From an uncultured Nitrososphaerota archaeon (GTDB lineage: Archaea > Thermoproteota > Nitrososphaeria > Nitrososphaerales > Nitrosopumilaceae): DNA of 64,000 bases. Location: assembly GCA_963701075.1 (NCBI GenBank), contig OY969559.1, positions 1,472,001 through 1,536,000 of the forward strand, read 5' to 3'. How positions within the stretch are numbered: position 1 is the first letter of the stretch; each line of letters opens with the position of its first letter. The position numbers were made by a program, and so were the translations under genes. This document shows, in pieces, positions 10,462-46,831 of this stretch. The notes under the pieces were generated by a model, which was not told the origin of the DNA, did no database searches, and saw nothing but the letters and a program-made list of their open reading frames with translations.

Positions 10462-11280
10462 TCATGTTCCTATTTGTATTTCTCCGTCACAAATCTTCCT
10501 TAGGCATTCAATTGCAGAAAGGATTGCAAGTCTGCTTGTTTTGGGATTGCTCTCACTTGGAACGTTTTCAATTTTTATAGAAAACTTTCCAAACTTTCCA
10601 CTGGCCTGTATCTCATGAGTGTTTTTGTCAGTTTTTGGGTCGGCAACTATTCTTACCTTGGTTTTCGTGCTTCCAATTCCAGCCAAGCTGATAAGTGCAG
10701 CAACGTTAATGTTTGCAGGAAAGAGTCTTACTGCCTCTTCTGCCGTTCCGTCGTATATTACAGTAGATTCTTTTATTTCATCTGGGCTTATTTTTGAAGT
10801 CTCGAAAAATTTTGCCCCCTTTAGCGCTTTGGGATTCTTGGTTGTAACTAATACTATTGATTCTAATTCGTCTTTTACTGCTCTAATACTATCAAGTCCG
10901 GCAATTGCTCCAGACGGAAGAAAGACATGTTTGTTAAAATCCTTGCAGCCTTCAGATACTATCTCAAATATGGATTCATCCAATAATGCACCAACGCTCA
11001 TTATCATCATGTCTTTCCTGTTTTGAAGGATAGATAACGCGTTATCTCTAACTGCATCCTGAGAAGCAGCCTCAATTATCAGATCTACTGGCGATGCTGC
11101 CAGCAGACCAGCATTTTCTGTTATTACGGGTTTGTTTTTTAGTTTTGAGACTAGTCGTTGTGATGAGTCTTTGGAAAAATCAAATACGTGGGTAAGTTTT
11201 GCATGAATTTTGCCAGAATCTATAGCAACAGCTATTTCTGTCCCTATTGCGCCACAACCCAAAAGTCCTATCCTTTTCAA
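10462..11280 (-). CDS. nadX: L-aspartate dehydrogenase
   Basis: GCGAIG Rossmann motif, SVGAL, PSGAIAGLD, FPANINVA and NPKTS. Start placed at TTG 11280 (MKRIGLLG). Confidence 0.93.
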   Translation of the reverse strand: MKRIGLLGCGAIGTEIAVAIDSGKIHAKLTHVFDFSKDSSQRLVSKLKNKPVITENAGLLAASPVDLIIEAASQDAVRDNALSILQNRKDMMIMSVGALLDESIFEIVSEGCKDFNKHVFLPSGAIAGLDSIRAVKDELESIVLVTTKNPKALKGAKFFETSKISPDEIKESTVIYDGTAEEAVRLFPANINVAALISLAGIGSTKTKVRIVADPKTDKNTHEIQASGKFGKFSIKIENVPSESNPKTSRLAILSAIECLRKICDGEIQIGT

Positions 11281-21556: not shown

Positions 21557-22649
21557 TTGATCAAAAGATCAGAGATTCAAAAAATAGTAAAAGAATACTC
21601 GGATCTCTCTATAGGTACACTTGGTAGCCACTCCGCCCTTGAGATAATGGATGGTGCCAAAGATGAAGATTTTAGGACAATAGTAGTATGCCAAAAAGGC
21701 AGGGAAGTTCCGTACAAAAGATTTTCACGAATTGTCGACGAAATGATCATAGTCAATAAATTCAAAGACATGCTCTTGCCCAAGATTCAATCAAGGCTTA
21801 GGTCATCAGACACCATAATAGTTCCACACAGAGGCTCTTACTGCATATCTTGGATATGAAGCAGTAGAAAACAAGTTAAAGGTGCCGTTGTTTGGAAATC
21901 GCTCACTCTTTCAGGCAGAAGAACGTGCATACAAGAAGAACCAATACTATCTGCTACAAAAGGCCAAGATAAGACTGCCCAGAATTTTCAAAGACCCAAA
22001 AGACATAGACAGACCTGTCATAGTAAAGGTTCAAGAAAAGACACGCAAGTTAGAAAGAGCTTTTTTTATAGCAACTTCTTATTCAGATTACAAAGATAAA
22101 ACTGAAAAGAAAATCAGACAGGGATTGATATCAAGGGACGCATTAAAGGTTGCAAGCATTGAAGAATTCATAATTGGCACCTACTTTAATTTCAATTATT
22201 TCCATACACCAATATCAGACGAGGTAGATTTTCTTGGAATTGAAAGGAGGTTACAGACGAACATTCATGACTTTGTTTCATTGCCAGCAAAGCAACAACT
22301 TGAGACAAACATAGAATTGCAAAACATCGAGGTTGGTCACACGCCTGCCAGTATACGCGAATCGTTGCTAGAAAAGGTAATAGAGACAGGAGACAAGTTT
22401 GTGTCAGCAGTAAAAAAAGAATATCCCCCCGGCATCATAGGCCCATTTTCGCTTCAAAGTGTAATCACAAAAGACTTGGAGATAATAGTATACGATGTAT
22501 CACTTAGAGTTCCAGGCAATCCAATTCTTGCAACTACCAGTCCATATACAAAATACAAGTATGGAACAACTTTTGGCGTAGGCAGAAGAATAGCAATGGA
22601 GATAAGAAAAGCACAGCAAGAAGGAAAACTCGAAGAGATAGTAACCTAG
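21557..22649 (+). pseudogene. purP: PurP-family formate-AICAR ligase, frameshifted (+1 G near 21833)
   Basis: GSHSAL, VPHR|ALTAYLG (joined by removing one G), FGNR, ERAFF, GHTP and IIGPF.LQ. Confidence 0.88.
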
Positions 22650-38909: not shown

Positions 38910-39089
38910 ATTTAAAATCTATTATTTTTTTCATTTCATAAAGAAGTACAGCATTAATTTTTTCATCATGTAGGTTTGGGAATTATGAGAGAAAAGACTC
39001 TCTTTTGGCAAGAATATGTTTTTGGCTTTTGAAATTAAAATCAGTTAATGGCAAATCTTAAGTCATTACAGAATAATGTGATAAAAGAA

Positions 39090-39227
39090 ATGAGCGAGGA
39101 ACAATGTCTAGAATGTTTGTCCAAAAACACCTGCGAATACATGAACCCAATTGAGAAGAGCGACGGAATGCACTATTATTTTTTATGTGAAGATTGTAAA
39201 CATGAGTGGGAAATAATAAGAAAATAA
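39090..39227 (+). CDS. Small Zn-ribbon protein (45 aa, not in ORF track)
   Basis: MSEEQCLECLSKNT...YFLCEDCKHEW; two CxxC pairs. Confidence 0.65.
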   Translation: MSEEQCLECLSKNTCEYMNPIEKSDGMHYYFLCEDCKHEWEIIRK

Positions 39228-39394
39228 TGAAATTAGAATCCTAAAGCTTTACGACAATAAGAAATCATTCCATATTGTCAAACCGTTTGGTGAAAAGAAT
39301 AGAAAAATTAAACTTTAATTTCTACTGCAAAACCAAATCTGAGAATCAATCAAATTGTTATATACTAAGATTGTATGATATTATCCGAAAACAT

Positions 39395-39766
39395 ATGGAA
39401 GATACACATGAATCGTGCAAAATGGAAGGCGGTGCAGGATGTGGCTGTGGATCAATGTCGTCTCACGAACACTGCGGGTGTGATCAGATGGCATCTCATG
39501 GACACCATGGTTGTGGCGATGGTCATCATTCACATTCTGTGACAAGGATGTACAAGCGTGCATACATGGATGCGTTATATCAAGCCCAAGTAGAACGCCT
39601 AAGAAAAAGAATCGATGCCAAATTCGGGTCAACGCTTGACAAAATGGCTGATGCGGTAGCAGAGTCGTTCGGGAAGATGTGGGAGTCCAAGATGGCAAAA
39701 ATGGAGGCAAGACAGGAGCTGGAAGCCAAACTTAGGAAGATTCTTTCTGAAACAACTAAAACCTAA
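39395..39766 (+). CDS. His/Cys-rich N-terminus plus helical domain; putative metal-binding protein
   Basis: MEDTHESCKM..GCGCG...HEHCGC...HGHHGCGDGHHSH; likely start at 39395. Confidence 0.7.
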   Translation: MEDTHESCKMEGGAGCGCGSMSSHEHCGCDQMASHGHHGCGDGHHSHSVTRMYKRAYMDALYQAQVERLRKRIDAKFGSTLDKMADAVAESFGKMWESKMAKMEARQELEAKLRKILSETTKT

Positions 39767-39956
39767 AATATTTTTTCCTCGGTCTTTTTTTTAAATAATC
39801 CATCTAGAGAAACCGATTCTAGAGAATGAAGTTTAGACGGATAGAATAGAAGGTAATGATCCTAAAGTTATGAATGGATTAGCCAATTTTTATGAATTAG
39901 CATTGAGAAAGGAAAAATTTGATCATCTTTAAAAATACTGGGAGTAAGTAGTCATA

Positions 39957-40943
39957 TTGAAAAAAACTGCATATCTTCTGATAGCATTAATTTTTGTATC
40001 AAGTATGACAATAAGTTCGTCAACTAACGCGGTTGCACAACAAACACCTACAAATAATTTTAACACAATTAATTATCCTAGCGCCACTAATACATTTGCT
40101 CTTGGAATAAACAATGCTGGTCAGATAGTTGGGTATTATTATAACAGTCAAGAGAACTACCACGGCTTTCTACTCTCATCTGGTAACTATACCTCAATTA
40201 ATTACCCCGGTGCCAGTAGTACGACTGTTCTTGGAATTAACAATGCTGGTCAGATAGTTGGATATTATTATGATAATTCAGGGCACCTCCATGGCTTTCT
40301 ACTATCGTCTGGCAACTATACCTCAATTGATTACCCAGGTGAAAATAGTACATCGGCTTTTGGAATTAACAATGCGGGTCAGATAGTTGGAAATTATATT
40401 GATAGTTCAGAACATTTCCATGGCTTTCTACTCGCGTCTGGCAACTATACCTCAATTGATTACCCCGGTGAAAATAGTACCGCTCCTTATGGAATTAACA
40501 ATGCGGGTCAGATAGTTGGAAATTATATTGATAGTGTGGGACACTACCACGGCTTTCTACTCGCGTCTGGCAACTATACCCCAATTGATTATCCCGGTGA
40601 AAATAGTACCGCTCCTTATGGAATTAACAATGCTGGTCAGATAGTTGGATATTATTATAACAATCTAGAGAATAACCACGGCTTTCTACTCTTGTCTGGC
40701 AACTATACCTCAATTGATTACCCAGGTGCGAATAGTACAGCTGCTTTTGGAATTAATAATGCCGGTCAGATAGTTGGAAGTTATTACGATGATTCAGGAC
40801 ACTACCACGGCTTTCTACTCTCGTCTGGTGAGACTATACAAACTACTCCTGAATTTGGCCCTGTTGCCCCAATCATACTTGGCATTTCAATTCTGTCAAT
40901 AATTATTTTATCGGTCAGAACTAGATTCTTACACAGATCCTAG
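39957..40943 (+). CDS. Secreted HAF-like repeat beta-propeller protein with PEFG-CTERM anchor
   Basis: Signal peptide, six 43-aa repeats (GINNAGQIVG...HGFL), then PEFG, a TM segment and a basic tail. Confidence 0.88.
   Translation: MKKTAYLLIALIFVSSMTISSSTNAVAQQTPTNNFNTINYPSATNTFALGINNAGQIVGYYYNSQENYHGFLLSSGNYTSINYPGASSTTVLGINNAGQIVGYYYDNSGHLHGFLLSSGNYTSIDYPGENSTSAFGINNAGQIVGNYIDSSEHFHGFLLASGNYTSIDYPGENSTAPYGINNAGQIVGNYIDSVGHYHGFLLASGNYTPIDYPGENSTAPYGINNAGQIVGYYYNNLENNHGFLLLSGNYTSIDYPGANSTAAFGINNAGQIVGSYYDDSGHYHGFLLSSGETIQTTPEFGPVAPIILGISILSIIILSVRTRFLHRS
40059..40829 (+). repeat. Intragenic tandem repeat, 6 x ~129 bp
   Basis: Six copies of ggaat(t/a)aa(c/t)aatgcNggtcagatagttgg spaced about 129 nt apart. 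Confidence 0.92.
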
Positions 40944-41117
40944 AGGTTCTCCAAACAAATCATATTTCCCGTTACGATGTGAATCACTGAAAACGGAATC
41001 AGGCACACAGGAGCCTGTGTTAGTAGAAGCAAGTTGAATTGCCCTAGGATGAAAAATACGAGAGATTGATCCTAGATTTAGCCCCATCTTAAAATACAAT
41101 TACTGCGTAATTATACT

Positions 41118-41471
41118 ATGCAAGGCTCAAGTGCACTAGATAATTACGATTTAAAAAGAGCACATCAAGCTCTAAAAATGCTGCTTATTGATAGAAGTAA
41201 TGAATTTCGCCTTTTTGCTCGAGGAATTGGGTATCCGACTAACACAAAAGACTGGGAATTAATAGTCCTGAATTTTTGTCTTGATTATATAGAATGTTTC
41301 CATACGTGGACTGCCGATGATCCGCCAGACCATCACCATATCCACAAGTGCATGACACAGATGAGACAGATGGCTAGAGGAAAATCAACCATGACTGAAG
41401 TCACACATCTTCAGAATACCGCATATCTAATTGCAGAGGATTTTAAAGCAATTTACAAGAGAATAGAATAG
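41118..41471 (+). CDS. Hypothetical protein
   Basis: 117-aa ORF with a TATA-like element about 25 nt upstream. Confidence 0.7.
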   Translation: MQGSSALDNYDLKRAHQALKMLLIDRSNEFRLFARGIGYPTNTKDWELIVLNFCLDYIECFHTWTADDPPDHHHIHKCMTQMRQMARGKSTMTEVTHLQNTAYLIAEDFKAIYKRIE

Positions 41472-41473
41472 TA

Positions 41474-41525
41474 GAACCCTTTTAGAAATTCAACGTTGTA
41501 ATGATATGTTTTCTTTTTAGAGCAA
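41474..41525 (-). pseudogene. cas1: cas1/casposase 5' remnant (cassette 3), frameshifted
   Basis: Minus strand ttg-ctctaaaaagaaaacat-atcattacaacgttgaatttctaaaagggttc aligns to the other two remnants (...HYNVEFLKG). Confidence 0.6.
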
Positions 41526-41538
41526 GATTTACTCTTTT

Positions 41539-41721
41539 TTATCTAGTGAGATAGAAACAATTCCATTTCATATGAGGAATAGATTGCATACTAGGCTGCG
41601 CACAATGTAGGATGTAATGCGCTGGCATATGGGGCGTTACAAGTAAATGTACTGTAGCAATTGTGATTCCAATTCCAACTAGTACTGAAATTATTGTTAT
41701 TGCAATAACTGATTTATTCAT
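41539..41721 (-). CDS. Small single-TM protein (cargo of cassette 3)
   Basis: N-terminal TM; lies between the shared promoter motif and the cas1 remnant. Confidence 0.6.
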   Translation of the reverse strand: MNKSVIAITIISVLVGIGITIATVHLLVTPHMPAHYILHCAQPSMQSIPHMKWNCFYLTR

Positions 41722-41808
41722 AATATAATTACGTCAGTATTGATCTTAAACTATCTTTAAATCATAACGTGTCTATTACGTGAGTTGAGAACTTTTGTTC
41801 GTAAAGTT

Positions 41809-41867
41809 GGGGTTTTTATTTTTGCTTGCTGTCTACAAAAAGACAGCCCCATCAGGCCTAGAAATTT
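41809..41867. repeat. Cassette junction: GGGG-N34-CCCC with degenerate copy of the aEF-2 3' end (TIR-TSD-TIR-like)
   Basis: ggggttt-ttatttttgcttgctgtctacaaa resembles ggggtttactatttttactctttatctacaaa at 44625-44656; then ccccatcaggcctagaaatt resembles the reverse complement of 44606-44628. Confidence 0.7.
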
Positions 41868-41893
41868 CCGTATGACTTGCAGTCACGTTGTGG

Positions 41894-42124
41894 TTAATCT
41901 CCTTTTTTTCCTCTGAGCAGTTCTGACATGTCACCTAAAAGGTAAATGAATCCTATTGCAAACATTGTACCTGAAATCATCAGTAATGCAAAACCTAGAA
42001 AATCAACTTGAGAGTAATTTTCAATATTGGCGCCATTTAGATAGTTCCATGATTCGTAAAGCCCAACTATTGATACCGTGGTCAGAATAATTTCAAACAG
42101 CATTGTTTTTCCTGTCATGGTCAA
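41894..42124 (-). CDS. Small 2-TM hypothetical protein
   Basis: Two hydrophobic segments. Confidence 0.6.
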   Translation of the reverse strand: MTMTGKTMLFEIILTTVSIVGLYESWNYLNGANIENYSQVDFLGFALLMISGTMFAIGFIYLLGDMSELLRGKKGD

Positions 42125-42167
42125 AATATTCCTCTTTCTTTTTCTTCCAAGTCCATAATCTGTTCTT

Positions 42168-42350
42168 CTACTGACTTATATTGACATTCTCGTATGACAT
42201 ATTTTTGCCATACCATTCTTCGATCTCAGGTTCTTTGAATGAGTCGGTGGTATTTTTGAGAACAATGTTTGAATCTTTTACGTTTATTGAAAAACCGTAG
42301 CCCTTTAGGAATTTTATATTGTAATAATTTCGTTTTTCTATCTGTGTCAT
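42168..42350 (-). pseudogene. cas1: cas1/casposase 5' fragment (cassette 2)
   Basis: MTQIEKRNYYNIKFLKGYGFSINVKDSNIVLKN...EPEIEEW..NMSYE matches the N-terminus I recall for thaumarchaeal stand-alone Cas1; truncated at 60 aa. Confidence 0.75.
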
Positions 42351-42358
42351 AAATAAAA

Positions 42359-42760
42359 TTATTCCAACAATTTGCCGGTGACGGCACCAACAAAATTAAT
42401 TTGACTACCATGTTCGCTACTTATTGAAAAATAACATTCCCAAGTGACTTCCCAGACATACTCGTTATTCTCGTGATTCTTAAATGGAGAGGCAATAGCC
42501 AAAGACATATCCTTCATAGTTCTTTCATCTACGGCAAACAGAGTATCGTTTTTTACATGAAGTAAGTGTATGCCTACATTACGTAATTCATTAGGACTAT
42601 TGTCTGCACAAAGAGATCTCTGCATGGCAACGTCAAACGCTTTCTGTTTGGATAAAAAATGTGGATTTCCAAGATAGTCAAAGAGAATCAACAGTCCGCT
42701 GATTATGCCGATTGAAAAAATAACAATTGTTGCAACAGTAATTGGTTTTTTTCTCATCAC
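42359..42760 (-). CDS. Membrane-anchored PepSY-like protein (cargo of cassette 2)
   Basis: N-terminal TM; LSKQKA..VA, YVWEV and VGAVTGKLL (a D-A-x-T-G-like motif). Confidence 0.65.
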   Translation of the reverse strand: MMRKKPITVATIVIFSIGIISGLLILFDYLGNPHFLSKQKAFDVAMQRSLCADNSPNELRNVGIHLLHVKNDTLFAVDERTMKDMSLAIASPFKNHENNEYVWEVTWECYFSISSEHGSQINFVGAVTGKLLE

Positions 42761-42853
42761 ATGACATTACTTTCGTAATGATTTAACCACTTTCCAACAA
42801 ATCCCACGACCATAATGACTCTAGGTATGACGCCTTTTCATGATGTCAGCGGC

Positions 42854-42913
42854 GGGGATTGCATTTTTGTAGACAAAGTAAAAATGTTTTACCCCTGTTT
42901 TACTCGTAGAAAT
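42854..42913. repeat. Cassette junction: GGGG-N34-CCCC, with the aEF-2-end-like core inverted
   Basis: tttgtagacaaag--taaaaat-gttttacccctgttttactcgtagaaat vs aEF-2 sense end tttgtagataaagagtaaaaatagtaaaccccccgtttaggcgtggaaat. Confidence 0.72.
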
Positions 42914-42960
42914 ATGTTATTGTCGCAAAACTTTAGAAGATTAGAAAATAATCAAATTCA

Positions 42961-43884
42961 ATGAATGTCATAATAGTGGTTGGAATCTGTCTGTTGATGG
43001 CATTCTCTTGTTCCAATCTTGTTTTTGCACAAAAAGTTCTCACAAATCCCAATATTACAGCCACGACTGACAAATCATCCTACATCTTTGGTGATACAAT
43101 TGTAATTTCTGGCACTGTTAAAACTGTTCTACAGGGAAATATTATGACCATCCAAATTTTAGATCCCTATAGTAATTTAATTCAGACAGCACAGGGTAGC
43201 GTTGCTCAAGATGGCTCTTATGCAGACGCTGTGGAGATAGCCGGCACTGGGTGGAAATCAAGTGGTGTTTATACAGTTCTAGTTCAATATGGTTCTGAAG
43301 TTCAAACCCAAACAACTTTTGCATTTACGGCAACAACGGCTCCGATCAATGATACATTCCAAGTACAAATTCCAAATAATAGTCAGATCTTTAATGTGCC
43401 ATATACAATATTCGGAGGATCAGTGACGAACATGTCTGTTAATGCCTTGAATCCTTCTCTGACTGTATCCATACTACCAGTTAATTACGGCACAATTACA
43501 CTTTCGCTCCCACGGTCTTTGCTTGATGCAAAGACAAGTAATGGTACGGACGAACCGTTTACCATCTTAATTGATGGTATACAAATTATACCACAAAAAG
43601 AACAAGTGACTTCAAGTGATAGAACTTTGTCAATACAGTTCCTGCGAGGAGATAAAAATATCCAAATTATTGGTACCAGTGTGACACCTCAAAATAATTC
43701 TACTATTAACACGCCAAGCACAAATTTGACCACAAGTCAACAACCATCCGCACAAGTCACTAACATGTCAAAACCTATTTCGGCAGTACCTGAATTTCCT
43801 AATGGAATAATCCCCTTTATAGCTGCATTAATCGTCATGGTTGTACTTACAAGAACTACGTTTAGACAAATAATTAGGACATGA
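42961..43884 (+). CDS. Secreted PEFG-CTERM-type surface protein
   Basis: Signal peptide, TDKSSY..GD, LPRSLLDA and F.ILIDG thaumarchaeal domain, then VPEFP, TM and a basic tail. Confidence 0.85.
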   Translation: MNVIIVVGICLLMAFSCSNLVFAQKVLTNPNITATTDKSSYIFGDTIVISGTVKTVLQGNIMTIQILDPYSNLIQTAQGSVAQDGSYADAVEIAGTGWKSSGVYTVLVQYGSEVQTQTTFAFTATTAPINDTFQVQIPNNSQIFNVPYTIFGGSVTNMSVNALNPSLTVSILPVNYGTITLSLPRSLLDAKTSNGTDEPFTILIDGIQIIPQKEQVTSSDRTLSIQFLRGDKNIQIIGTSVTPQNNSTINTPSTNLTTSQQPSAQVTNMSKPISAVPEFPNGIIPFIAALIVMVVLTRTTFRQIIRT

Positions 43885-43918
43885 TTCTAAAGTTATGAAC
43901 GAGTCAATGCCGATCTCT

Positions 43919-44065
43919 TTAAATTATTTCGAGAAAACTGAAGTGTGAATTGAATGGGTCAGATGTATTTTTGAGAAATATTTTAGAGTTTTTTACGTTT
44001 ATTGAAAAGCCGTAGCCTTTTAGGAATTTTACGTTGTAGTGATTTTGTTTCCCTTTAAGAGTCAA
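43919..44065 (-). pseudogene. cas1: cas1/casposase 5' fragment (cassette 1; not in ORF track)
   Basis: The TTG start overlaps the upstream stop; MTLKGKQNHYNVKFLKGYGFSINVKNSKIFLKNTSDPF is 27/38 identical to 42168-42350. Confidence 0.78.
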
Positions 44066-44532
44066 TTTGGATGTAATACGATTGAAACGAATCCATAAGT
44101 TAGAAGACCCATGCCGAGAATTTCAAAAAATACTACTATGATTATCCATTTTGCTTGTTTGAATTCGTCTTCCGTCACTCTCTTTCTGCCAATAGAAATG
44201 TAATACACAAACCAAATCATGTCTATGCAAACTATCATTCCACCAAGCGAATATTTGCCAAGGTCACTAACAGCTACTAATCGAAAAGATGCGATAGTAG
44301 GCACAATTCCAAGAATCAAAACTTCCATGGATTCGATTAGATAATGATTTACCTTTGGGATACGTCTTACAAAAATCAAAAATAAACCAAAGACAGAGAA
44401 GCCAATGACAGTAACAAGATCTTTCCATTCTTGATCTAGTTTCAAATATGCGTCAAAAACAGCACGTAATAGAATGAATAATGCCGTAACCAGCAATATG
44501 GTAATAACTATGGAACGTGGCTTGAGTTTCAC
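44062..44532 (-). CDS. Multi-pass membrane protein (cargo of cassette 1)
   Basis: About 5 TM segments; GTG start. Confidence 0.7.
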   Translation of the reverse strand: MKLKPRSIVITILLVTALFILLRAVFDAYLKLDQEWKDLVTVIGFSVFGLFLIFVRRIPKVNHYLIESMEVLILGIVPTIASFRLVAVSDLGKYSLGGMIVCIDMIWFVYYISIGRKRVTEDEFKQAKWIIIVVFFEILGMGLLTYGFVSIVLHPN

Positions 44533-44538
44533 AGAGTT

Positions 44539-44578
44539 ATTACTTTTATCATGATCTTAAATCATTTCCAACAAATCA
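44539..44578 (-). promoter_or_regulatory. Cassette promoter-like motif (BRE/TATA), repeated at 42766-42803, 41728-41764 and 38459-38501
   Basis: gatttgttggaaatgatttaagatcat...aaagtaat; the exact 13-mer tttccaacaaatc occurs at 44565 and 42791; TATA-like tttaag lies about 25 nt upstream of each cargo start. Confidence 0.65.
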
Positions 44579-44638
44579 TACTTTCGTTATTACCTAGTTA
44601 GCTTCAATTTCCACGCCTAAACGGGGGGTTTACTATTT

Positions 44639-46831
44639 TTACTCTTTATCTACAAACTCATCTGCTGTCGGAGGTTCTGGACTGAGACCCTTTCTCTTTC
44701 TAAGATCAGCCACGATGGTTGACAGGATAGAGTTTGGAACTGGCGTCCATGCCTTAAAGTGAGTGTTCCACATTGCTTTTCCTGCAGTCTGCCCACGCAT
44801 TACCTCAGACAAGTCAAATGTTTCAGATGCAGGAATCTCTCCAGTGATAATATTTACAACACCTTTTTGTTCCATGTTTAGAACCTTGCCCCTCTTTCCT
44901 GATATGACACCTGCTACGTTGCCAATGAGTTCTTGCGGAATCCTGACCTCAATTCCAAGTGTTGGCTCTAGCAGTACTGGTTGAGCAAGCAACATTGCAC
45001 CCATGCATGCACGCCTTGATGCAGGTCCTAGTTGTGACAGACCTCGGTGTGCCGGGTCTTCGTGTGGTACAAAATGATGGAATGTAAACTTGCATCCCCT
45101 TACCTGTTCTCGAGTAAGTGGGCCTTCCTTCATGGTATCATCAAATCCTGAAAGTATAGAATCGGTTGATTCCTGAACAAACTGGACACCTTTTGTGCCG
45201 TCAACCATAACATTTCCTCTGGGATCAAACCTCATCACACGTTTTGCGTCGTCTCCGTCCCAGCCGACTTCTTTCAATATCTTTTGTACTTCCTTCTTGT
45301 CTTTGTATTCATTTAGTGTGCCGTTTCTTATCATCTCAGCTACCTTCTCGTCGAGCGGTTCTACTTTCAGAAATATCTTGTTGTGTCTGTTAGGTGATTT
45401 TGCCATGATAGGTCCTGCAGAACCACGAATTGTCTCCCTATAATTTATCAAAGGTTGCGAAGTGACAATATCCACTTTGGCATCTGCAATCAATGCTGTT
45501 GCAATCTCAAGGTGAAGCACACCCATGCCGGCAATCACAGTCTCTCCGCTTTCCTCGTTTATCTTTACGACCAAGTTGGGGTCTTCAATTGTAATTCTGT
45601 TTAGTGCCTCGACAAGTTTTGGCAAGTCTTTTGGATGTTTTGGTTCTACTGCAATTTGCACAACTGGTTCGGACACATACTGGATTCCCTCAAATGTATG
45701 AACGCCTGCTACTGTAGATATTGTCTGGCCTGCCCTTGCATATTCCAATCCCAAAAGTGCCGGAATGTTTCCTGCTGCAAGTTCTCCTACCATCTCTCGC
45801 TGGTTGCCCATGAAAAAGTTGACAGACTGGATTCTTCCCTCTCGTTTTGTATCAATGATATGAATCCTGTCACCATCTTTTATCTTGCCAGAAAATAATC
45901 TCCCTATTGCCACAGGACCAGCGGCCGGGTCAACTGTCATGTTTACAATCATCATTATGGCAGGGCCATTATCGTCACAACTGAGCAGTGCCTTTCCAAT
46001 GTCAGAGTCAAGATCACCTTTCCAAATCTTTGGAATTCTATACCTTTGTGCAACGTCAGGCGGTGGATGATGTTTTACTACCATTCCAAGAACTGCATCA
46101 TATAGCGGAGCCTTTTCTGCAAGATCCTTGACACTTCCGCCCTCAGAATAGGCAGCAAAAATATCTTTGAATGATATTCCTTTTTTCTTCATCACGTCGG
46201 CATTAAATCCCCACTTGTCCTTGGCAGAACCAAATGAGACGCTACCGTCCTGAATGCTTACTTTCCACTTTTCCTTGTATTCAGGTTCTGCATAAATGTC
46301 AATTAGCCTGTTAAAGTTGGTCACAATCTCAAGCAGCCATTCCTGCATCTTGTCAGGTGTTAATCTTAATTCCTTTATGAGACGGTCAATCTTGTTGATA
46401 TAAAGTACTGGTCGCACCCTCTCTTCTAGCGCTTGGCGGGTTACTGTCTCGGTCTGGGTCATGATACCCTCTACAGAGTCAGATACCACAACTGCCCCAT
46501 CAATTGCCCTAAGGCTTCTAGTCACACGGCCAGTAAAGTCAATGTGACCTGGAGTATCAATCATGTTGATGACATATTCTTGATCATCTTTTTCATAGAG
46601 TAGAGTAACATTTGCCTGCACGATGGTCATCTGCCTGTCTTGCTCCAATTTCATCGAGTCAAGTGCAAGCGCCTGTCCTGCCACAGATGGACTGATGATA
46701 CCGCTTGATGCAAGAAGACTATCACTCATTGTAGTTTTGCCGTGATCTACATGAGCTATCACACCAAAATTTCTGATGTGGCTCTTGTCTCCAATAATTT
46801 TGAGAATCTGCTCAGTCGCCTTAAATTTCAT
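44639..46831 (-). CDS. fusA: Translation elongation factor aEF-2
   Basis: AHVDHGKTT, DTPGH, NKID and the diphthamide loop HEDPAHRG. Confidence 0.98.
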   Translation of the reverse strand: MKFKATEQILKIIGDKSHIRNFGVIAHVDHGKTTMSDSLLASSGIISPSVAGQALALDSMKLEQDRQMTIVQANVTLLYEKDDQEYVINMIDTPGHIDFTGRVTRSLRAIDGAVVVSDSVEGIMTQTETVTRQALEERVRPVLYINKIDRLIKELRLTPDKMQEWLLEIVTNFNRLIDIYAEPEYKEKWKVSIQDGSVSFGSAKDKWGFNADVMKKKGISFKDIFAAYSEGGSVKDLAEKAPLYDAVLGMVVKHHPPPDVAQRYRIPKIWKGDLDSDIGKALLSCDDNGPAIMMIVNMTVDPAAGPVAIGRLFSGKIKDGDRIHIIDTKREGRIQSVNFFMGNQREMVGELAAGNIPALLGLEYARAGQTISTVAGVHTFEGIQYVSEPVVQIAVEPKHPKDLPKLVEALNRITIEDPNLVVKINEESGETVIAGMGVLHLEIATALIADAKVDIVTSQPLINYRETIRGSAGPIMAKSPNRHNKIFLKVEPLDEKVAEMIRNGTLNEYKDKKEVQKILKEVGWDGDDAKRVMRFDPRGNVMVDGTKGVQFVQESTDSILSGFDDTMKEGPLTREQVRGCKFTFHHFVPHEDPAHRGLSQLGPASRRACMGAMLLAQPVLLEPTLGIEVRIPQELIGNVAGVISGKRGKVLNMEQKGVVNIITGEIPASETFDLSEVMRGQTAGKAMWNTHFKAWTPVPNSILSTIVADLRKRKGLSPEPPTADEFVDKE

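Follow-up and report, generated by a model that had tools for sequence, protein, structure and literature searches.

Tandem decayed casposons with residual cas1 5′ ends directly downstream of ef-2 in a Nitrosopumilaceae archaeon

What are the three short cas1-like pieces that stand in a row next to small intact genes downstream of ef-2, and why is only the 5′ end of cas1 left in each? They lie in a window of 64,000 nucleotides (the whole stretch of DNA that was analysed: positions 1,472,001 to 1,536,000 of contig OY969559.1, assembly GCA_963701075.1) from an uncultured ammonia-oxidising Nitrososphaerota archaeon of the Nitrosopumilaceae; all coordinates refer to this window. The locus is a decayed casposon relic, with a terminus at a known target site and no casposase, and the array consists of tandem internally deleted casposons directly downstream of ef-2, the termini of its units 2 and 3 being tentative. 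Its features, from ef-2 outward, are:

44639–46831, minus strand: ef-2, archaeal elongation factor 2 (NCBIfam TIGR00490 aEF-2, 837 bits against a cut-off of 738)
44641–44653: T_A, 13 nt of the ef-2 end, directly next to the unit 1 terminus; the TAA stop codon is split T/AA
44580–44640, minus strand: unit 1 terminal inverted repeat (TIR), ef-2 side (profile E 4.9e-7 at 44640–44590; terminal motif at 44625–44640)
44062–44532, minus strand: c156, cargo ORF of unit 1, a multi-pass membrane protein, in the slot between terminus and cas1
43919–44065, minus strand: stub 1, a 48-aa ORF with a TTG start; cas1 codons 1–38 followed by an unrelated 10-codon tail
43850–43945, plus strand: pPolB 3′ fragment, the last 32 codons with one internal stop, tail-to-tail with stub 1
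42961–43884, plus strand: c307, encoding a secreted surface protein whose C-terminal tail is of the form PEF...TM; lies within unit 1
42880–42939, plus strand: second TIR of unit 1, far from ef-2 (profile E 2.6e-6; terminal motif at 42880–42895)
42869–42879: T_B, an 11-nt ef-2-end copy flanked by two termini that face each other; its orientation is opposite to that of T_A and T_C
42854–42868, minus strand: tentative cas1-side terminus of unit 2 (terminal motif only; TIR profile E 5.8)
42359–42760, minus strand: c133, cargo ORF of unit 2, with an N-terminal membrane anchor; intact, ends 8 nt before stub 2
42168–42350, minus strand: stub 2, a 60-aa ORF; cas1 codons 1 to about 55–58
41894–42124, minus strand: 76-aa ORF of unit 2 with two membrane spans, directed at the far terminus
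41837–41850, plus strand: tentative far terminus of unit 2 (terminal motif only)
41824–41836: T_C, an old 13-nt copy of the ef-2 end, directly oriented and identical to T_A at 8 of 13 positions
41809–41823, minus strand: tentative terminus of unit 3 (terminal motif; missed by the TIR profile)
41539–41721, minus strand: c60, cargo ORF of unit 3, 60 aa with one membrane span; intact, ends 8 nt before stub 3
about 41468–41530, minus strand: stub 3, a start-less cas1 remnant, codons about 4–24
41118–41471, plus strand: convergent 117-aa ORF, its stop codon adjoining the end of stub 3

As judged from homology, all three pieces are 5′ ends of a Cas1 (casposase) gene. A Cas1 N-terminal profile, made from the first 70 residues of 23 relatives and searched against 90,917 six-frame pieces of the 1.92-Mb genome, gave E-values of 2.6e-28 for stub 2, 8e-20 for stub 1 and 0.0029 for stub 3 (profile positions 4–22), which exclude a chance likeness to Cas1; stub 3 by itself gave no significant match to single full-length Cas1 queries (E 5.5–8.7). 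Among 71 candidate relatives of stub 2, 23 passed E ≤ 0.01, with identities of 58–78% (78% for protein P0001), and 14 of these are 340–358 aa long. Each of the 23 has the PF01867 domain, and the casposon context of a related gene in a genome of the same genus (L040, described below) agrees with this, so that the assignment to Cas1/casposase made in the initial annotation holds against a non-Cas1 family. Stub 1 is 84% identical to the Cas1 protein P0003 over residues 1–38 (E 1.8e-14). In the full-length relatives PF01867 covers residues 19–306, nearly all of which are missing from the stubs, and a Pfam search of the stub 1 and stub 2 ORFs gave no PF01867 match at E ≤ 1. Their sequences thus place the stubs as descendants of a family-1 casposase and not as working Cas1 proteins.

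The initial annotation had placed three such pieces on the minus strand at these positions, where they are present, and had counted 27 identities among the first 38 residues of stubs 1 and 2, a figure that a recount from the ORF sequences reproduced. Both of these stubs are open from a proper start codon. Their proteins align with 71% identity over residues 5–39 and their DNA with 80% identity over 115 nt, and each is equally distant (80% nucleotide identity) from the nearest sampled full-length cas1. Against full-length genes the breakpoints map to nucleotide ~116 in stub 1 and ~164 in stub 2; such mapping, proposed earlier, gave no position common to all stubs. The loss of nearly all of cas1 in each unit, as proposed in the annotation, amounts to ~84–95% of the gene. 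The annotation's description of the third piece as frameshifted requires correction. The stub 3 frame, ...KKKTYHYNVEFLKGF..., is uninterrupted across 41456–41539 and has no start codon, and its likeness to Cas1 stops at about codon 22–24, exactly at the stop codon of the convergent 117-aa ORF; it is therefore start-less and truncated, not frameshifted.

The ef-2 gene is intact, and its orthologues in five of five genomes of the same genus are 90–93% identical. The unit 1 terminus begins within the ef-2 stop codon, which places the insertion at the 3′ end of the gene, and the T/AA form of the junction beside ef-2 is also found in L036, L037, L039 and L057. Unit 1 (1,761 bp) has terminal inverted repeats at both ends, recognized by a profile that was built from 22 termini of other genomes only. 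The ends of units 2 and 3 carry only the short terminal motif, of 14–15 nt, which was derived partly from those same sites, and the profile of other genomes lends them no support (E 5.8 or no match). The window contains seven copies of the motif where 1.3 would be expected; five of these lie at the three junctions, and the junction motifs stand as facing pairs 11 and 13 nt apart. The far terminus of unit 2 (1,032 bp) faces the terminus at 41823 across 13 nt, a spacing that matches junctions in L019, L036 and L042. When the ef-2 end together with the unit 1 terminus was aligned to 41759–41839, the score was 43, reached by 2 of 300 dinucleotide shuffles, whereas the ef-2 end aligned to junction B does not by itself reach significance (score 35, reached by 31 of 300 shuffles). 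The reverse complement of T_B agrees with T_A in 10 of 11 nucleotides when a 2-nt gap is allowed (hand count); its inversion cannot be produced by simple repeated integration. To the left of the 117-aa ORF no terminus that would bound unit 3 was found by motif or by TIR profile.

The pPolB fragment in unit 1 is 62.5% identical to residues 564–595 of the 595-residue pPolB (PF03175) of the L040 casposon, with an E-value of 2.8e-4 in the whole genome and 2e-5 in the window. It shows that unit 1 descends from a pPolB-bearing element; no pPolB remains were found in units 2 and 3. The whole genome has no intact casposase or pPolB gene, and apart from a CRISPR-linked cas1 it contains neither cas1 sequence beyond codon 60 nor any other piece of cas1. 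Unit 1 and unit 2 likewise have no second copy in the genome, where blastn returned only matches of 27–101 nt. The ef-2 target site, the terminal repeats with their target copies and the pPolB 3′ fragment are absent from the initial annotation.

The three cargo ORFs show no homology to one another. That of unit 1 is intact, its 3′ end overlaps the start of stub 1 by 4 nt, and it is homologous to an ORF upstream of the intact casposase in L016; it received no Pfam or PADLOC assignment, and its best Atlas score (0.89) was to unnamed clusters only. The unit 2 cargo ORF is 33% identical (E 3e-12) to an ORF between ef-2 and a cas1 stub in L037. The 76-aa ORF of unit 2 has no family match and no paralogue in the genome, whereas the convergent 117-aa ORF has two, 62% and 49% identical. 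PADLOC gave no family for any of 10 cargo and flank proteins. At least 15 paralogues of the surface protein gene c307, whose last ~11 codons extend into the pPolB fragment, occur at other sites of the genome, and L038 has a c307 homologue downstream of ef-2; c307 shares no flank similarity with this homologue and no homology with the 169-aa cargo of L036. Given its many host paralogues, c307 may be a host gene and not casposon cargo.

Related elements in other genomes provide the family-1 context of the units. The L040 element has a Cas1 that is 72% identical to P0003, a pPolB (PF03175, E 2.2e-25), an OLD nuclease, two termini and a 14-nt target-site duplication (TSD) at purD. In L036 the order is ef-2, terminus, a 139-aa ORF, an intact cas1 and a convergent pPolB, followed by a second unit with a stub. 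Stubs of the cas1 5′ end beside intact passenger ORFs were found in 18 other genomes of the order, the passengers including an AbiV-type HEPN protein, secreted nucleases and a methyltransferase. A terminal motif lies upstream of the stub in the correct orientation at 17 of 25 stub-bearing loci, and at none of the 25 loci of other genomes was a facing terminus found within ~1.5 kb downstream of the stub. One further relic (C1:1648613) has a terminus and a cargo ORF but no detectable stub. All 16 relics with a cargo slot have an intact ORF in it, and no stop codon occurs in their 2,774 cargo codons, whereas 793 stub codons include 3 (Fisher p 0.011, which is overstated because the genomes are kin; off-frame stop density is 8.6 per 100 codons for comparison). 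The earlier proposal that the deletions spare the cargo is consistent with these counts, and the selection that it invoked is plausible.

We consider it probable, at roughly 0.8, that the stubs are the dead 5′ cas1 ends of three different family-1 casposons that integrated serially at ef-2 and decayed in place. Three casposons would have entered in succession at a shared target, the final 13 bp of ef-2, each newcomer entering at the ef-2 end and pushing the older units away. Preservation is best in unit 1, next to ef-2, and poorest in unit 3, which fits arrival at the ef-2 end; only this degree of decay suggests the order of arrival, the equal distances of stubs 1 and 2 from full-length genes giving no such order. 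Internal deletions would then have stripped the mobility genes, that is, most of each cas1, and pPolB save for the 32-codon tail in unit 1, leaving per unit a terminus, an 11–13-nt copy of the ef-2 end, a single cargo ORF and the first 20–58 codons of cas1. The stubs would now be only the 3′ flank of cargo genes that selection may retain. They may persist by a form of edge protection, because deletions that took the stub would tend to harm the adjoining retained gene, and this could explain why the stubs are 5′ and short. Such protection predicts relics with a terminus and cargo but no stub, and C1:1648613 fits. Protection by the ef-2 or terminus boundary alone was rejected as the cause of stub retention, the retained length from the terminus ranging from 173 to 1,077 nt across relics with the breakpoints near the cas1 start.

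It is unlikely that units 1 and 2 were instead non-autonomous mini-casposons, short on arrival and mobilised in trans by parent transposons in the manner of MITEs. Both are placed like full elements with target copies between them, and unit 1 has two significant inverted termini and unit 2 two outward-facing terminal motifs, as such elements would. However, MITE-like elements would have near-identical copies, whereas neither unit has another in this genome, which also lacks a casposase or pPolB gene to move them; most relics elsewhere look one-ended, and no fewer than two separate internal deletions are required to account for unit 1, in keeping with decay in place. The second terminus of unit 1, at 42880, might also be read as the inverted cas1-side end of a fourth relic, for c307 begins 81 nt inside it and T_B is in the sense orientation for that terminus. 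This reading is weakened by the L040 casposon, which likewise has an inward ORF, 97 nt within its non-cas1 end, and by the pPolB fragment between c307 and stub 1, which gives the canonical order. That the three stubs arose by local duplication of one relic is extremely improbable. They share a strand, lie within 2.6 kb and repeat a layout of small ORF then stub, but the 80% DNA identity of stubs 1 and 2 is low for copies, the three upstream ORFs are unrelated, and each unit has its own terminus and target copy. Moreover, stub 1 is nearer to P0003 (84%) and stub 2 to P0001 (78%) than they are to each other (71%), in agreement with the initial view of separate insertions and not of a recent duplication.

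Two further alternatives give the stubs themselves a role. A preferred cut, owing to a cryptic casposon end or cis site within the 5′ part of cas1 that is used in aberrant excision or must be kept for mobilisation, is quite unlikely. Breakpoints do fall at codons 26–40 in 18 of 29 stubs and track the start of cas1 and not the distance from the terminus, and in stub 1 the ...LKN..DPF codons form an A-run followed by CCC that loosely resembles the terminal motif. The lower edge of this peak, however, coincides with the detection limit of ~26 aa, which shapes it, and nucleotide breakpoints scatter over ~78–116 nt and beyond with no common position; the ends of environmental stubs are spread widely over codons 43 to 92. 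A single cryptic cleavage site in cas1 was rejected on this scatter, and a DNA element hidden in the first 40 codons on synonymous-codon identity, which is equal there and in the rest of the gene (0.463 and 0.464; 21 full cas1 genes). Truncated transposases are known inhibitors in other transposon systems, and the stubs could in principle be kept as small peptides, corresponding to the first strands of the Cas1 N-terminal domain, that bind and block an incoming casposase; a role as Cas1-interacting peptides was raised in the initial annotation and found no support here. Stubs 1 and 2 are open from proper start codons, those of L042 and L043 keep 82–85 Cas1 residues within open ORFs of 91–93 aa, and metagenomes commonly contain such short ORFs (21 further cas1-stub proteins of 45–103 aa). 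Against this, 7 of 30 stubs are interrupted by a stop or a frameshift or have lost their start (stub 3, L004, L039, two in L041, L047 and L052), stub lengths and tails vary from one to another, Pfam does not identify the stubs as Cas1, and the genome has no family-1 casposase as a partner; the dN/dS of a stub would mainly record its past as part of a working gene. As a general account it is very unlikely, and for some stubs, chiefly those of L042 and L043, in which the N-terminal beta domain is complete, and perhaps the 60-aa stub 2, a function as translated decoy subunits that poison incoming casposase is decidedly improbable. If it were so, a dead casposon at ef-2 would guard the site and the host against reinfection, and retention of the cas1 5′ end beside cargo would be selected, not merely tolerated.

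If the stubs are the remains of serially integrated casposons, the locus captures decay partway from the published intact tandem casposons to bare solo-TIRs. Casposons are regarded as the source of the CRISPR adaptation machinery, and their entry, pile-up and decay at a fixed site bear on the origin of repeat arrays; here at least three trimmed units have accumulated beside one "leader", the ef-2 end. That 18 further genomes have this layout suggests a general rule by which mobility genes are lost and the terminus-proximal passenger stays intact. Casposons could in this way carry genes to the ends of essential genes, where the host retains them. Relics overlooked by gene callers can be recognized simply by their stubs, the 15-nt terminal motif and the T/AA junction, and these markers also point to guaA as a further casposon target. 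No description of cas1 5′ stubs, ef-2 relic arrays or the guaA target was found in the literature, although the supplementary tables of the casposon papers might list some.

The array most closely resembles the thaumarchaeal family-1 casposons NitAR1-C1, NitSJ-C1, NitNF5-C1/C2 and NitDev, which have a compact Cas1, protein-primed PolB, terminal inverted repeats and a target-site duplication and insert at the ef-2 3′ end without disruption of the gene (PMC4046053, PMC6563490). The array shares this insertion and, in unit 1, the inverted repeats at both ends; it has remnants of cas1 and pPolB and candidate copies of the target. In these papers ef-2 is the commonest target, and tandem insertion there is described for NitNF5-C1/C2 (PMC4046053, PMC6563490). 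In contrast to the complete casposons published there, three decayed, stub-bearing units stand in a row here, none intact, with 20–58 codons left of each cas1 and 32 or none of pPolB. The solo-TIRs and inactivated tandem casposons of Methanosarcina likewise decayed in place where a target had been used again, and there a single terminal repeat is left in 43 strains (PMC4779613). Those relics, however, belong to other casposon families at intergenic or tRNA-Leu sites and, as described in that source, are bare TIRs or full-length copies with stops, whereas here a terminus, an intact passenger and a stub remain (PMC4779613). Like Tn7 at attTn7 (the glmS 3′ end), the units would have inserted site-specifically without harm to the end of an essential gene, and repeated use of the site would have built an island of decaying old copies, a comparison drawn in PMC4046053 and PMC4779613; the Tn7 transposase is unrelated, Tn7 elements, unlike casposons, are not self-replicating, and membership in Tn7 is not claimed. 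As an analogy only, a CRISPR array also grows when a Cas1-family integrase adds units beside a fixed leader, corresponding here to the ef-2 end, and each insertion duplicates a short sequence, here of 11–13 nt. The units here are transposon relics of 1–1.8 kb, in contrast to spacers of ~35 nt, and what recurs between them would be duplicated target sequence with a transposon terminus on either side. Casposons in tandem and relics of the solo-TIR type are both known from earlier work, and the ef-2 array is a new example of these and not a new kind of system.

The three cas1 5′ remnants in the window (stub1, stub2, and stub3) form an array that is a real and well explained feature, an intermediate stage of casposon decay. 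They lie directly 3′ of ef-2, the 730-aa gene at 44639-46831 that encodes aEF-2 (TIGR00490, 837 bits), at the following positions.

43919-44065, minus strand: stub1, a 48-aa ORF with a TTG start
42168-42350, minus strand: stub2, a 60-aa ORF
41456-41539, minus strand: stub3, an open frame that reads ...KKKTYHYNVEFLKGF... and has no start codon

A recount on the ORF sequences gave the same N-terminal readings of stub1 and stub2 as the initial annotation and the same identity, 27 of the first 38 residues; the two are 71% identical over residues 5-39, and their DNA is 80% identical over 115 nt. The third piece had been described as Cas1-like and frameshifted. It is Cas1-like, but it is truncated and start-less within one open frame rather than frameshifted, and its likeness to Cas1 ends at approximately codon 22-24, exactly at the end of a convergent ORF (41118-41471).

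With Pfam alone, the stubs are not recognized as Cas1. However, 23 of 71 candidates are longer relatives of stub2 at E ≤ 0.01, with identities of 57-78% and, in 14 of them, lengths of 340-358 aa; PF01867 is present in all 23, and one is labeled by its source as the Cas1 of a Nitrosotalea MAG. The Cas1 residues matched are 1 to approximately 58 for stub2, 1-38 for stub1, and approximately 4-22 for stub3. Because every longer relative of stub2 carries PF01867 and the stubs align to the N-terminal residues of these proteins, the earlier assignment to Cas1 stands, and best matches to a family other than Cas1 were not seen. A profile made from residues 1-70 of the 23 relatives and run over the entire genome (1.92 Mb; 90,917 six-frame pieces) recovered stub2 (E 2.6e-28), stub1 (E 8e-20), and stub3 (E 0.0029), together with a fourth stub at C1:583895-583999 (E 9.2e-6), where C1 is the genome's own contig. 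A doubtful fifth stub outside the window (C1:282021-282215; 1474-1659 of locus L003) matches codons 19-42 with E 0.023; the 61-aa ORF that contains this stub overlaps the glycyl-tRNA synthetase gene at the 3′ end of the latter, and no terminal motif was found near the stub. In searches of the whole genome with four full-length queries, the only cas1 sequence found beyond residue 60 belonged to a gene of 28% identity at C1:1913 kb, which is the sole PF01867 match in the genome. This gene encodes a 314-aa Cas1 and is followed by 98-aa and 194-aa ORFs and a repeat array with a period of ~75 (C1:1911908-1915765, locus L005, outside the window), neighbors that mark it as CRISPR-linked. Neither the Cas1 queries nor the PF01867 search located an intact casposase of the stub type in the genome.

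The ends of the elements were located with a terminal motif (five A, then T or G, 3-6 bases, CCCC) that was derived partly from the window's own sites. It occurs seven times in the window versus 1.3 expected, and five of the sites are at junctions: 44640(-), 42880(+), 42868(-), 41837(+), and 41823(-). One of these termini borders ef-2, and the other four form two pairs that face each other across 11 and 13 nt; a spacing of exactly 13 nt between facing termini recurs at junctions in three other genomes (loci L019, L036, and L042). The remaining two matches, at 10805-10819 and 22414-22429, may be due to chance. Because the motif was partly derived from the sites being tested, an independent terminal inverted repeat (TIR) profile was made from 22 termini of other genomes only. 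It supports the termini at 44640-44590 (E 4.9e-7) and 42880-42936 (E 2.6e-6) and gives no support to those at 42868, 41837, and 41823 (E 5.8 or no match). Three sequences at the junctions correspond to the end of ef-2.

44641-44653: T_A, the real ef-2 end, with the TAA stop straddling the junction
42869-42879: T_B, an inverted copy of the ef-2 end, matching T_A at 10/11 positions
41824-41836: T_C, a direct copy of the ef-2 end, matching T_A at 8/13 positions

The ef-2 end plus terminus aligned to the T_C region with a score of 43, which was reached by 2 of 300 shuffles. Its alignment to the T_B region is not significant by itself because the score of 35 was reached by 31/300 shuffles. The termini delimit three casposon relics, in which c156, c133, and c60 are the cargo ORFs, c307 is a secreted surface-protein ORF, and pPolB is protein-primed PolB.

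42880-44640: unit 1; in order from ef-2, terminus, c156, stub1, pPolB tail, c307, far terminus
41837-42868 (tentative limits): unit 2; terminus, c133, stub2, 76-aa ORF, far terminus
41823 leftward (left end undefined): unit 3; terminus, c60, stub3

The pPolB tail, 43850-43945(+), is 62.5% identical to the last 32 of the 595 residues of the pPolB of a casposon in another genome (locus L040), with one internal stop (E 2.8e-4 in the whole genome and 2e-5 in the window). It is arranged tail-to-tail with stub1, like cas1 and pPolB in the intact L036 element, where a 629-aa ORF is 51% identical to the L040 pPolB; therefore no fewer than two internal deletions are needed to derive unit 1. Only 177 nt separate the c307 stop codon from that of c156, and this spacer consists wholly of the pPolB tail and stub1.

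In the initial annotation, stub1 and stub2 looked like independent or old insertions, and three observations agree with this. The three cargo ORFs are mutually unrelated; stub1 and stub2 are closer to the full-length Cas1 proteins P0003 (84%) and P0001 (78%), respectively, than to each other; and no further copies of any unit are present in the genome. Homologues of the cargo are found in other genomes, that of c156 as an ORF upstream of an intact casposase (L016) and that of c133 as an ORF between ef-2 and a 65-aa stub (L037). Preservation drops with distance from ef-2. Unit 1 has TIR profile scores of 25.8 and 23.5 bits, unit 2 has 3.5 bits, and unit 3 has none; a start codon remains on the stubs of units 1 and 2 but not on that of unit 3; and agreement with T_A declines from 10/11 positions in the inverted T_B to 8/13 in T_C. 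In contrast, stub1 and stub2 are equally far from the closest gene sampled, at a nucleotide identity of 0.80 for each. The decay gradient fits arrival at the ef-2 end, where new elements would enter so that older units would lie farther off.

T_B runs opposite to T_A and T_C, an orientation that simple repeated integration cannot yield. A reversed target copy is also present in L045 (~2906-2918), and the occurrence of such copies at two of six examined facing-terminus junctions suggests that the short segment between inverted termini has inverted. T_B could have arisen by an inversion mediated by the TIRs or by flipping of the short loop in a terminus-T-terminus palindrome. The cas1-side ends are head-to-head, 13-14 nt apart, in L019 (2919/2933), where the pair is one intact casposon and one stub relic, and probably in L041 (~3623/3638); the orientation in which an element inserts next to a resident one therefore varies. 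In L040, the casposon end adjoining the host gene purD is the one distal to cas1. The c307 gene (42961-43884) belongs to a family with at least 15 surface-protein paralogues in the genome (25-52% identity), one of which adjoins a relic at guaA, and L038 has a homologue downstream of ef-2. The gene may have been captured as cargo or may belong to the host and have been drawn in by rearrangement.

Several features lie to the left of stub3. A 59-aa zinc-ribbon ORF (39048-39227) has ~80% of its amino acids conserved in three loci of the same genus, at 4.6 to 11.5 kb from ef-2, and seems to be the far-side marker of a variable island downstream of that gene. Right after it, 25 nt at 39241-39265 are 84% complementary to the inner unit-1 terminus and have no TIR-profile support. 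The 163-aa ORF at 39275-39766, which has no family match, contains the Cys/His-rich stretch CGCG...HEHCGC...HGHHGCGDGHHSH and is possibly metal-binding. Inside the island, 39957-40943 encodes a 328-aa secreted protein with HAF repeats (TIGR02913); its coding DNA contains five tandem repeats of 129 nt, and the protein terminates in a PEF...TM tail. Sequences at 39845-39874 (21/24 nt) and 41055-41080 resemble the unit-1 pPolB-tail region and could be older pPolB remnants or chance matches.

Two further relics are located elsewhere in the genome, outside the window. The relic at the 3′ end of guaA (GMP synthase; C1:583895-584647, 1498-2250 of L004) comprises a terminus (E 6.3e-6), an intact ORF of 193 aa that matches DUF922 weakly, a stub corresponding to cas1 codons 13-38 with its start lost, and a convergent 313-aa secreted-protein gene. 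The other (C1:1648590-1649252, 2091-2753 of L062) has the strongest terminus in the genome (E 3.9e-9); a family-less 184-aa ORF begins 85 nt inside this terminus (C1:1648613), and no stub was detectable before the next, convergent gene. Ahead of the terminus, at least 22 nt form a pseudo-end resembling that of ef-2; it reads NEFIDKE and is more similar to the ef-2 ends in other genomes than to the one in its own. This relic is 132 kb from the real ef-2 in the opposite orientation and may have originated by rearrangement or with a carried flank.

Similar relics are present in other genomes. Matches to P0003 were found in 81 of 301 genomes of the order (a tally that includes G271, flagged as unpublished, and is the sole result here to draw on that genome), with ~25 full-length genes. 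Approximately 31 rows, counted by reading, matched the N terminus only; 24 were examined, and those left out were two of G271, two of G256, and one each of G087:C49, G079:C20, and G280. With two extra stubs from fetched loci (L039 and the second one in L048), the census comprises 26 stubs at 23 loci in 18 genomes; L059 (frameshifted, extending to residue 106) and L061 (cut by the contig end) were excluded. Breakpoints were tabulated for these 26 together with stub1, stub2, and the guaA stub.

Breakpoints of cas1 stubs (n = 29)
Codon 26-40: 18/29 stubs
Codon 45-63: 5/29 stubs
Codon 73-85: 5/29 stubs
Beyond codon 100: 1/29 stubs

The apparent peak at codons 26-40 would be the visible part of a distribution that declines with length; stubs shorter than ~26 aa escape detection. 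The terminal motif is upstream of the stub in the right orientation at 17 of 25 stub-bearing loci, and host genes were identified at the following junctions.

Host genes at casposon junctions
ef-2: L036, L037, L039, L054, L057
guaA: L004 (own genome); L043 (another genus)
purD: L040
Oxidoreductase: L058

At all of these loci the host stop codon is divided as T and AA across the junction, with the exception of L054, whose junction is one base off. Of the 20 relics whose terminus was mapped, 16 have a slot between terminus and stub, 293-987 nt long, and in 16/16 a single intact ORF of 60-292 aa occupies it and ends -6 to +18 nt from the stub start. The four slotless relics have terminus-stub distances of 82-111 nt. 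Among the cargo products identified for other relics are a HEPN_AbiV protein (E 9.7e-7), a methyltransferase, and, in two cases, an SNase nuclease; no family was assigned to the cargo proteins of the window with Pfam, PADLOC, or Atlas.

The excess of N-terminal fragments is not an artifact of the search because the N terminus is not the best-conserved segment of Cas1 (0.72 identity versus 0.86 at columns 211-225). A DNA element hidden in the first cas1 codons is rejected, since synonymous-codon identity among 21 full cas1 genes is 0.463 in codons 1-40 versus 0.464 elsewhere. The scatter of the nucleotide breakpoints (~78-116 nt and further) and the varied ends of the metagenomic stubs argue against a cryptic cleavage site, and protection by the host-gene boundary is rejected because the length kept from the terminus ranges from 173 to 1,077 nt with the breakpoints still near the cas1 start. 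Above these three explanations we rank protection of the stub by the neighboring retained gene, which fits best. Stop codons number 0 in 2,774 codons of cargo versus 3 in 793 codons of stubs (Fisher p 0.011, for genomes that are related), and the off-frames of the cargo ORFs contain 8.6 stops per 100 codons. By reading, 7 of 30 stubs are damaged by stops, by a frameshift, or by loss of the start, and the cargo beside these is open where mapped (L004, L039, L052, and unit 3). The relic at C1:1648613, which has a terminus and an ORF but no detectable stub, is also in line with this explanation. With protection by the retained gene, successive deletions would trim dead mobility genes to the edges of kept genes. 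From the open reading frames we infer selection on the cargo genes.

The element of L040 (genome G148, same genus) has a Cas1 72% identical to P0003 within 11.9 kb, two inverted termini, a 14-nt direct duplication at the purD 3′ end, a PF03175 protein-primed PolB (E 2.2e-25), and an OLD-type nuclease. As published (PMC4046053, PMC6563490), this is the make-up of family-1 casposons, the commonest target of thaumarchaeal casposons is the 3′-distal part of ef-2, and a tandem pair of casposons is possible there. Literature searches of main texts returned no account of cas1 5′ stubs, of stub-bearing ef-2 arrays, or of guaA as a casposon target. The regular combination of an intact terminus-proximal cargo gene with a cas1 5′ stub may make a census worthwhile. 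The family-1 elements described at ef-2 are complete, whereas the units in the window are decayed (PMC4046053, PMC6563490); the decay reported for Methanosarcina casposons differs in consisting of inactivated tandem copies and solo-TIRs (PMC4779613).
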